Origin: Candidatus Micrarchaeum sp.
Lineage (GTDB): Archaea > Micrarchaeota > Micrarchaeia > Micrarchaeales > Micrarchaeaceae
Assembly: GCF_016806735.1 (NCBI RefSeq)
Contig: NZ_CP060530.1
Location: forward strand, 930,001 to 962,000
Direction of reading: 5' to 3'
Length of the DNA: 32,000 bases
Shown: piece by piece, positions 24,535-27,244 of the stretch
Numbering within the stretch: the stretch's first letter is position 1
How the letters are laid out: each line of letters begins with the position of its first letter
Position numbers and translations under genes: made by a program
Notes under the pieces: generated by a model
What the model saw: the letters and a program-made list of their open reading frames with translations, nothing else
What the model was told of the DNA's origin: nothing
The model's database searches: none

Positions 24535-27244
24535 GATATCACATAACCGTTTATCGCAAAGTCGTCAGTAGGCGCAGTGTTTATATCGTAAGTGCCGTAG
24601 GTTTCGTTAATGAATTCGACGCTCTGTACTGTGGTGTTTCCATGGCCTTCAAGGTATAACATGTCCCCTACTTTTATTGAACTTGCAGGAACGTTGGTGC
24701 CGTTTGCAAGTATTACCGATTCGCCGCCATCAAGTTCAAGTTTGCCGTTTATCAGATACATACCCCTAGAATGCACATGCTTTATGCTGACTATAACGGT
24801 TGGCACATTCTTGCGCTCCTGGAAGTTGTATCCCATGACTAAGCTGCCTGCGCTAACGTTGGCTACGTTTATATATGTGCCGTTTGCGAGCTCTATGCTT
24901 TCGTTTCCTAGGAAGCTGGAGCACAAAGTAGCTAGCTCGCAGGTCGAATCCTTGTCTATTACAAAGTTATTTGCAAGGTAATCGTTAACAGGGCTCCCTA
25001 TAAAGTCGTAAACCTTGCCGCCGTGGCTTGATATGTTTATGGAGGTAATTGTCACATCCTGCATTGTAATAGCATTAAATAGTGTATCTCCTACTTTTGC
25101 ATTGTATGCCCTCTGCCAAGTGCCATTTATTAGCATTATTTCGTCAGCGTCAACCTGCAGATTTTTGTTGAACGTGTATTTGTTTGTGGCGTTGAAGCTC
25201 GACACTGCAGATATTACTGAGGGCTGATCTTCGTGCGTCCTGAGATTGTATGAAAGCACAACCATTCCAGGTTGCACCTGATACGCCTTTATAACGGTCC
25301 CGTTAGCTAGGGTAATATTCATGTTGCCATATACCGAACTTCCTCCTCCAGAACTGACTGTTGTCGATTTTGTTGTTGAGGCTGTTGTTGTCTTTGAGGT
25401 TGTTGTAGCCGAAGTTGTAGTTGTAGAGGTTGTTGTGGATGTGGTGGATGAGGTTGTGGTGGAAGTTGTGGTGGAAGTTGTTGTAGTTATTGTAGGTGCA
25501 GGCGTTGAAGCCGAGGCTGTAAGCCCGCCAATACTAATTACCTGCGTCCCAGGTCCGCACTGATTAACCCACATAACAAGGAAGTTGTAGCTACCGCTCG
25601 AAAGGGATATGCTATCTGGGCCATAATTAGTAGCGCCTTCTCCTTTCCATGCAGAGCCGCCGAATACATTTGACCATGAAGTAGAGCTGGTTGGTTTGTA
25701 GTAAACTTCCATTCCGTCGTCAGTTGTTATTGCTATGCTTATTGTTTCTGACTGGGGAAGAGTTATCGTAGTGTTAGCGATTGAAAGTTGCGAATTGTAA
25801 GGTGCAGAACAAGCAACGTTGTTGTTATTAAGATCAGACGTATCACTAGGAAATGCGACTACAGTCATTCCTTGATATGCATCGCCCTGATAACCACTCG
25901 TGCCATATGCATATCCAGTAGTGCCAGTAGTCCACGGTCCCTGCTGTTCTACGCCGTAGCCACTAGGCAATGTCGGATTGGTTTCGTATGAAGACATTTC
26001 CTGATTTGATGGGCTTACTGCTGCAATCACCCCAAAGTCCAATTGCGTTATTGTGCTTGTTGAAGTAGTGGTTGAAGTGGAAGTGGTTGTTGATGTAGAG
26101 GTTGTGGTGGAAGTGGAGGTTGTTGAGGTGGAAGTTGAAGTTGTAGAGGTTGTGGTTGAGGTTGAGGTTGTTGTGGAAGTGGAGGTTGTGGTTGAAGTTG
26201 AGGTCGTAGTTGAGGTGGATGTGGTTGAGGTGGAAGTTGAAGTTGTAGAGGTTGTTGTGGATGTGGAAGTAGTAGACGTAGAAGTGGTTGTTGATGTAGA
26301 GGTTGTTGTGGATGTGGAGGTTGTTGAGGTGGAAGTTGAAGTTGTAGAGGTTGTTGTGGATGTGGAGGTTGTTGTTGAAGTTGTAGTTGAAGTGGAAGTG
26401 GTTGAAGTACTTGTGCTCGTATATATTGTGCTTGTTGTAGCAGAAACCTTGAAGTTTGCAGTTATAGAAACGTTGGAACGCAATATTAAGGTAGTTGGTT
26501 CGGCAGCAAGCGTACTTAGACTGGATGCGCCGGAACTTATAGCCCAGGAACCGAATGCGTAGCCTGCAGGGGACACTGCATACAGAGTATAGGTCCCGGA
26601 AGCCAATGGCACTGTTATATTGTTGTGGTATATGACCCCATTTATCACTATTTCTCCACTGGTTGGACTTGTATAAAGAGTAACATTATAGAAAGGGACG
26701 TATGCAGGACTCATTGATTGTGTAGACGCACCTGCAGTTACATATGGTCCTGTGCATACGCCTGATTTGCATGTATAATAATGAAGGTCGAAAGTGGCCG
26801 TTGTAGTACTGCCGAGCGGCGGCTCCACGCTCCCAGGTATGGAAACAGCACATATTACCCTAGTACCTGAACTAACATTTCTGGGCAGACATGTCCCGTT
26901 ATAGACGTTCGTGCCGGTACTTCCAATATTGGTAAGAGTTACGCTTATGGCGTTTGCGGGAAGGTGCATGCCTACTCCCAGACTGTCAAGGAAAACTACT
27001 GTGTATTTTATTGGTATGCTGTGCGCAGTATTTACACTGGTCAGCGTGCTCTGAACGCAGGGAAGAAGAGGCTCTATGTTGCATACTGGTGGAAGATAAC
27101 TGATCGGGCCTTTGGGCCTGAAATCACGAATATGAAGGCAACGAATATGGCGATTATGAGAAGCGCCCAAGCGTATACGCTAAGCATTTCTATTGCAGAT
27201 TGTGCATTATCCCTAATAAATAGGTGTTTGAGCTGCTCTTTCAT
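24531..27244 (-). CDS. large surface protein, copy 2 (frameshifted or -1 frameshift-dependent): pilin-like signal, shared N-module, T/S stalk, PA14-like domain, T/S stalk, two tandem Hint-like modules
   Basis: The track ORF 24531..27170 lacks the signal peptide. That signal (MKEQLKHLFIRDNAQSAIEML...FVISGPK) is encoded from ATG 27244 in the +1-offset frame and terminates at TAG 27076-27074. Relative to copy 1, one G is missing from the run at 27106-27108. Confidence 0.7.
25350..25525 (-). repeat. second Thr/Ser-rich coding repeat (stalk between the PA14-like and Hint-like modules)
   Basis: Encodes TITTTTSTTTSTTTSSTTSTTTSTTTTSATTTSKTTTASTTKSTTVSSGGG. Confidence 0.8.
26053..26409 (-). repeat. 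imperfect tandem coding repeats (first Thr/Ser stalk of copy 2)
   Basis: Same TSTSTTTSTSTTT theme as copy 1. The first ~60 aa are identical in protein but differ at many synonymous DNA positions, and the total length differs from copy 1. Confidence 0.85.

Follow-up and report, generated by a model that had tools for sequence, protein, structure and literature searches.

A single-base difference, rather than programmed −1 frameshifting, splits a large, probable surface-protein gene in the assembled chromosome of Candidatus Micrarchaeum harzensis A_DKE

Cases of −1 frameshifting are among the closest described counterparts of a gene split by one nucleotide beside a slippery heptamer. In Escherichia coli dnaX, the shift occurs at A_AAA_AAG, with an upstream Shine-Dalgarno-like element and a downstream hairpin; among archaea, −1 frameshifting has been described for fucA1 of Saccharolobus solfataricus, the precedent invoked by the original prediction, and for magnesium chelatase of Methanococcus and Methanocaldococcus, at A_AAA_AAR (PMC5009743). 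The C_CCA_AAG heptamer is reported to be highly shift-prone in E. coli, and the G run of the herpesvirus thymidine kinase gene illustrates how frameshifting can compensate for an indel, be it a 'savior' or a problem one (PMC5009743). We analysed a 32,000-nucleotide (nt) stretch, hereafter the window, of the closed chromosome of Candidatus Micrarchaeum harzensis A_DKE (contig NZ_CP060530.1, positions 930,001 to 962,000). It carries two tandem paralogues, copy 1 and copy 2, probably for prepilin-like surface proteins with Ser/Thr linkers, and copy 2 is split by a 1-nt frameshift next to a C_CCA_AAG heptamer. The comparisons below indicate that this frameshift reflects either an error of sequencing or a private mutation of very recent date, not programmed frameshifting, and that nothing at the locus is new in kind.

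Both copies lie on the minus strand (Table 1). The zero frame of copy 2 reads ...GTG ATT TCA GGC CCA AAG GCC CGA TCA... and then closes at a TAG; its 56 codons encode an N-terminal charged region, a QSAIE motif and a hydrophobic helix (a prepilin-like signal), followed by 10 out-of-frame codons. From there on, the −1 frame carries the remainder of the gene without a break to its normal stop, with about 861 codons after the heptamer where about 860 had been proposed. The change of frame comes from a run of three C: copy 1, which is intact, reads GGCCCAAAGGCCCCGATCAG at 21641-21622, and copy 2 has the same string minus one C (CCCC at 21631-21628 versus CCC at 27108-27106). The heptamer obeys X_XXY_YYZ in the zero frame, the first C of CCCAAAG (27116) being the third base of the GGC codon. 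It sits 1 nt upstream of the C run, separated from it by the single spacer base G 27109, and no stop intervenes in either frame. A −1 slip at this site is predicted to yield ...VISGPKGPISY..., which differs from copy 1 by an A to G change alone, and the predicted tryptic junction peptide is GPISYLPPVCNIEPLLPCVQSTLTSVNTAHSIPIK. The identical heptamer is found in copy 1 at 21639-21633, where a slip would truncate the protein. What the original prediction stated about the sequence is borne out throughout.

The site was then compared with other assemblies. Relatives were found by exact look-ups of the products of neighbouring genes (the 328-amino-acid (aa) gene, the UbiA-type prenyltransferase, the SRP54-domain GTPase and the 83-aa PRC-domain protein), and the copy-2 site was recognised in them by copy-2-specific single-nucleotide polymorphisms (SNPs) in its 5' part. 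The window is nearly identical to Candidatus Micrarchaeum sp. AZ1 (L001). No substitution separates it from L091/L092, L095 and L098 over 5.7-9.5 kb or from L106 over 2.9 kb, and L093, L094, L097 and L099 are 95-99.7% identical to it. In L091/L092, L095, L098 and L106 the copy-2 site reads GGCCCCGATC, with four C, and CCCC is also present in L093, L094, L097 and L099 and in the collapsed or hybrid loci L001 (AZ1), L103, L111 and L112/L118. In total, more than 10 same-species assemblies have CCCC behind the copy-2 SNPs. A four-base run as in copy 1, which the original prediction had put forward, if found in the reads, as the sign of a plain assembly error, is what independent assemblies contain. 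The copy-2 open reading frame (ORF) is unbroken in five same-species assemblies and encodes 904 aa in four of them (L093, L095, L097 and L099). Restoring one C to the copy 2 of the window gives exactly the 904-aa protein of L095, and the −1-frame part shows 0 substitutions relative to this intact allele. The 56-aa zero-frame product, by contrast, was recovered just once, on one NCBI contig, from a collection of about 15 billion proteins that covers Logan assemblies of sequencing runs of the A_DKE lineage; an exact look-up among encoding contigs gave no record, and the single occurrence came from a cluster look-up. The CCC allele is private to this one assembly. Three further searches added nothing: the exact DNA pattern across the site, tried for both alleles, had 0 matches in Joint Genome Institute (JGI) metagenome contigs; a UbiA look-up repeated with a short flank gave no further Logan places; and none of the possible downstream products (879, 812, 765 and 727 aa) had an exact match, but the intact 904-aa proteins were unmatched too, which makes this last search uninformative on the CCC allele.

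Residual homopolymer indels in PacBio RSII and Nanopore assemblies are a familiar source of false split genes. The A_DKE chromosome (989,838 bp) was assembled with HGAP3 from one PacBio RSII single-molecule real-time (SMRT) cell and corrected with Illumina reads via bwa and VarScan, which required a variant frequency of at least 80%, a coverage of at least 10x and support on both strands (PMC8975820). The C run falls where such a correction is hardest. A base-by-base alignment of both copies places it 122 nt within an exact duplicate of about 730 nt, whose two arms are identical save for the single C. Upstream of the repeat, the copies are told apart by SNPs at 27227-27230, 27245 and 27255; downstream of it, many codons of the Ser/Thr linkers have different third bases, and the proteins end in unrelated C-terminal domains, that of copy 1 being Gly/Cys-rich. 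The N-terminal 265 residues are common to both proteins. Reads shorter than about 120 nt are not assignable to either copy at the C run. We consider it probable that the missing C is an uncorrected long-read homopolymer deletion in the PacBio/HGAP3 consensus. The consensus would have lost one C of the C4 run in copy 2; short reads carrying CCCC would then have aligned perfectly to copy 1 instead, and only those reaching the SNPs 120-150 nt away would have been placed on copy 2. The correction thresholds would thereby have remained unmet at copy 2, and its place so deep within the sequence shared by the paralogues would have let the deletion survive polishing. The case resembles known long-read homopolymer errors in being a single-base deletion in a G/C run (CCCC to CCC), in its RSII/HGAP3 source, in its repeat location and in its absence from short-read assemblies of the same lineage. 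It is unlike them in that the run has only 4 bases and that the assembly is Illumina-corrected and otherwise free of indels over about 28 kb. Within the organism, copy 2 is most probably a normal gene of 904 codons without a break. The closed chromosome in public databases, that of the sole Micrarchaeum in culture, therefore probably shows a large surface-protein gene as falsely split, one part of it being annotated as a protein of 56 aa, and this affects proteome databases for A_DKE. More generally, exact paralogous repeats are blind spots for the short-read polishing of long-read assemblies.

The ~730-nt identity of the 5' parts suggests recent gene conversion, because the adjoining linker codons have diverged at third positions. 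The tandem pair itself is older than this, since both copies are found in the same arrangement in L004, which is 81% identical.

A second private difference served as a control on the comparison. Between positions 4220 and 32000, the window differs privately from the compared assemblies only by the missing C and by a SNP at 17906 (plus strand). This SNP is nonsynonymous: residue 52 of the 83-aa PRC-domain protein is Thr here and Ala in all other populations. The protein version of the window was found only in GCA_002204695.1, GCA_027316705.1, GCA_027316665.1 and the Logan assemblies of SRR5169067 and SRR5169068, and SNP 17906 is thus a marker of the A_DKE lineage. Illumina data obtained in 2017 from the same enrichment consist of 2x51-bp reads, which the lineage assemblies fit (PMC5468238). 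Two Illumina assemblies of the A_DKE lineage reach the C-run site (L106 and L112/L118), and both carry CCCC. The private SNP is therefore reproduced in independent data from the lineage, whereas the deletion is not.

Several points nonetheless weigh against a sequencing error. Assemblies made from 2x51-bp reads merge both copies in the repeat, so that CCCC would be expected about half the time in each even if the true copy-2 sequence were CCC, and the A_DKE-lineage Illumina assemblies predate the PacBio sample. At high coverage, a run of 4 bases is usually called correctly in a Quiver consensus. The absence of any other indel discrepancy in about 28 kb implies a low general error rate, and the real private mutation at 17906 makes a real private indel plausible in the A_DKE lineage. 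Two other assemblies each lack a different single nucleotide in this gene, again privately, and the gene may thus be prone to inactivation: AZ1 lacks a T in GGAGAAA-AGTG (L001 10539), and L091/L092 lacks a T in GTAC-TCAACC of the linker (window position 26406). Each of these deletions breaks the ORF.

The same observations sustain the main alternative, a real and very recent null mutation. The A_DKE line would have lost one C by replication slippage during years of laboratory enrichment; copy 2 would now specify only a peptide of 56 residues, with nothing exported, while copy 1 and the other family members would remain, and the gene would be a young pseudogene or a culture-adaptive loss. We regard this as a genuine possibility, but a less probable one than an error. 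A private substitution has been confirmed within these 28 kb, which shows that private mutations occur at about such a density, the assembly is otherwise indel-free relative to independent assemblies, and the deletions in AZ1 and L091/L092 may be events of the same sort. The family is also unstable: the member in L038 (6001-6340) has decayed, with one nucleotide inserted directly behind YYLPSS and in-frame stops further on, and in L003 (4050-4191) only 47 N-terminal codons, with a change of frame, are left before the homologue of the 328-aa gene. These two are the only other disrupted members of the family. Hybrid or deleted arrangements are a further sign of this instability. In L001 (AZ1), L103, L111, L112/L118 and L005, a single hybrid gene joins the copy-2 5' end to the copy-1 3' end and the 5.5 kb between the copies are gone, either because short-read assembly collapsed the tandem repeat or because recombination really deleted the segment.

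Against a real mutation, neither of the two A_DKE-lineage Illumina assemblies extending to the site has the CCC allele, and the 56-aa product is restricted to one contig. Its location argues in the same direction: a real change striking at random would have only about a 1-5% chance of falling in an exact-repeat segment, whereas an error surviving polishing is expected exactly there. Decay does not discriminate. The original prediction had reasoned that additional disabling mutations downstream in orthologous loci would mark a decaying pseudogene; downstream of the lesion we found no further disabling mutation and 0 substitutions relative to L095, a result with which a young pseudogene is still compatible because no decay is expected after so recent an event. 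An undecayed downstream ORF fits both an error and a recent mutation. Were the deletion real, a laboratory line would have recently lost one surface protein out of several paralogues, and no more than that.

We also asked whether the split could be bridged by recoding, that is, whether −1 ribosomal slippage at C_CCA_AAG, either evolved or compensatory and at low level, makes the exported ...VISGPKGPISY... protein. The heptamer is in the correct frame and 1 nt from the C run with no stop between, its sequence is shift-prone in E. coli, archaeal precedents exist (PMC5009743) and the downstream ORF is undecayed. As in dnaX, fucA1 and the magnesium chelatase genes, a zero-frame X_XXY_YYZ ending in A_AAG lies in an overlap of two ORFs that would give a full-length product. 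The resemblance ends there, since in copy 2 neither the split nor the heptamer is conserved, no stimulatory fold was found and the intact allele dominates in the species. In tblastn alignments, all 82 family members that span the site (82/82) are in one frame at residues 32-62, and a protein-based scan of JGI metagenome contigs gave 43 more distant family loci, all in frame. A conserved two-frame organisation was thus not seen, the 82 family members and the more than 10 same-species assemblies being single-frame or CCCC, and the split is unconserved even within the species. The heptamer itself varies synonymously among relatives: it is CCCAAAA in L002, L003, L093, L094 and L099, ACCAAAG in L004, GCCTAAG in L048 and GCCTAAA in L005, and purifying selection on its synonymous positions was not seen among the relatives compared. 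It also occurs in intact copy 1, where slippage would be harmful. On this sequence evidence the heptamer is most likely a by-product of conserved Gly-Pro-Lys codons, without a role.

Neither its position nor its surroundings set the heptamer apart. In-frame X_XXY_YYZ sequences occupy 39 of the 9114 codon positions in the genes of the window (0.43%), so that one is expected by chance in a rescue window of about 35 codons with P ~0.14; at about 1 in 7, a slippery heptamer beside the indel is unremarkable. The original prediction had suggested looking for a stimulatory hairpin downstream. The 60 nt downstream of the heptamer fold with a minimum free energy of −5.2 kcal/mol (z +0.47; 134/200 dinucleotide shuffles fold at least as well) and the 90 nt downstream with −12.6 kcal/mol (z +0.92; 168/200 shuffles), in a model that leaves pseudoknots aside, so that this RNA is no better than its shuffles; an Rfam search had no match. 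Recoding, which furthermore requires the deletion to be real, is very unlikely, and the site is almost certainly not an evolved programmed frameshift. The herpesvirus thymidine kinase offers a looser parallel: if the deletion were real, slippage at the shifty site by the indel could yield a trace product, although in copy 2 the ribosome would slip on the neighbouring heptamer and not on the run that has changed. The combination in which the deletion is real and a few ribosomes slip by −1, giving an export-competent 904-residue Hint-domain protein with one Ala changed to Gly, is extremely improbable; if true, it would represent adventitious compensatory frameshifting in a DPANN archaeon.

Two other routes around the frameshift were considered and rejected. 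Transcriptional slippage needs long A/T runs, and the run here is CCC. Internal restart of the −1 ORF, whose first starts are TTG 27170 and ATG 26969, would give a product without signal and helix that is therefore not exported. Of the three explanations left open by the original prediction, a pseudogene and a sequencing error consequently stand, whereas programmed −1 frameshifting or transcriptional slippage is unsupported: the allele is private, the heptamer is unconserved and no fold was found.

Phase variation would account for the split if the C run switched length by slipped-strand mispairing, turning a surface protein on and off in the population. The gene probably does encode a surface protein, the change is one of homopolymer length and different assemblies have different 1-nt deletions in the gene. 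However, more than 10 assemblies from different samples all have exactly four C, and the other private deletions lie elsewhere in the gene, outside the C run. Contingency tracts usually have at least 7 bases, and a 4-base run is far shorter. We judge phase variation to be scarcely credible here, and recoding and phase variation, even jointly, leave very little room beside an error or a recent mutation.

What the two genes encode was addressed with profile and structure searches. Their shared N-terminus, MKEQL[K/R]HLFIRDNAQSAIEMLSVYAWALLIIAIFVAFIFVI, resembles an archaeal class III (prepilin-type) signal; by eye, the signal motif is RDNA/QSAIEMLSVYAWALLIIAIFVAFIFVI here and MRG/QSALEF in the relative P0006, which begins MRGQSALEF. 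A short charged N-terminus and a QSA(I/L)E motif here precede a hydrophobic helix some 22 residues long. In an AlphaFold model (pLDDT 68.5), residues 2-42 form a helix, followed by beta-sandwich domains. Foldseek matches are weak (TM < 0.35) and include adhesins; the best are Gram-positive pilins (E 6e-4, TM 0.19) and archaellin 5tfy (probability 0.91, TMt 0.32). Whole-protein Pfam and NCBIfam scans returned no families, and no match to a pilin or class III signal hidden Markov model (HMM) was obtained, segments included; the segment scan did identify an InlB B-repeat, PF18998, at 30.9 bits (cut-off 23.6). In the −1-frame ORF of copy 2, a Cys-rich beta domain that contains the InlB B-repeat is joined by a Ser/Thr linker to a middle domain, from which a second linker leads to a Hint-like C-terminus; homologues carry PF07591 at this end, and copy 2 itself has only a sub-threshold Vint/Hint match. 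Both copies may therefore be type IV pilin-like surface proteins, in line with the nearby T2SSE gene. They are like archaeal proteins of this type in an apparent prepilin-type N-terminus (charged region, QSA(I/L)E motif, hydrophobic helix) and in the neighbouring ATPase gene, but copy 2 is far larger than a pilin, adds the Ser/Thr linkers and the Hint-like C-terminus, and differs in the lack of an HMM match and in the weakness of the Foldseek hits. The family is spread across Micrarchaeota, with 46 genome loci and 43 metagenome loci.

The linker repeats leave a mark on base composition: GC skew is very strong (0.35-0.39) at 20001-21000 and 26001-27000, over the ACN/TCN codons of the minus strand. 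On public contigs, gene callers often predict an antisense 183-aa ORF over these repeats in place of the real gene.

Table 1. Coordinates of the split gene, its paralogue and neighbouring features (positions in the window).
Feature	Position	Strand	Remarks
Zero-frame ORF of copy 2, ATG start 27244	27074..27244	-	56 codons, TAG 27076-27074
−1-frame ORF, remainder of copy 2	24531..27170	-	879 codons, ~861 after the heptamer
3-C run of copy 2 (GGG on the plus strand), source of the frame change	27106..27108	-	one base shorter than in copy 1 and every other assembly
Heptamer C_CCA_AAG, X_XXY_YYZ in the zero frame	27110..27116	-	codons GGC-CCA-AAG (Gly-Pro-Lys); identical in intact copy 1
Copy-2 arm of the 730-nt repeat	26497..27226	-	identical to the copy-1 arm save the single C
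Copy-1 arm of the 730-nt repeat	21019..21749	-	base-by-base alignment with copy 2
Copy 1, intact paralogue	19698..21767	-	689 aa; CCCC 21631-21628; heptamer 21639-21633
SRP54-domain (FtsY/SRP54-type) GTPase	14220-15410		product used for look-up
T2SSE-family (PF00437) secretion/pilus-assembly ATPase	15459..16778	+	~3 kb from copy 1; Pfam match on the identical gene in L110-L117
83-aa PRC-domain gene	17753-18004		holds SNP 17906
328-aa gene between the copies	23548-24534		
UbiA-type prenyltransferase	27304-28212		flank of copy 2

The surroundings of the two copies are listed in Table 1; an archaeal uS2 gene is also present in the flanks. Between the copies, the segment 22139-24534 holds three genes, of 328 aa, 230 aa and, on the opposite strand, 245 aa, each with a single hydrophobic N-terminal segment and many N-x-S/T sequons; none of the three received a family assignment. 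Judged from such features, the locus, including a 271-aa gene at 18864-19679, looks like a cluster of glycosylated surface proteins.

Two candidate transfer RNA (tRNA) genes were recorded alongside. Between copy 1 and the 245-aa gene, positions 21990-22094 of the plus strand are likely an intron-containing tRNA-Arg(TCG): the Rfam tRNA family matches 21990-22048 at 30.8 bits, and ARAGORN calls tRNA-Arg(tcg) only after removal of about 28 nt of the T-loop region (~22046-22073), the raw sequence giving nothing. The segment is conserved in L002 and L003, and a 109-aa ORF that overlaps this candidate (21873-22202) is probably spurious. On the minus strand at 30684-30793, the ARAGORN intron search identified a tRNA-Arg(CCT) with a 26-nt intron, which the standard ARAGORN run did not report.

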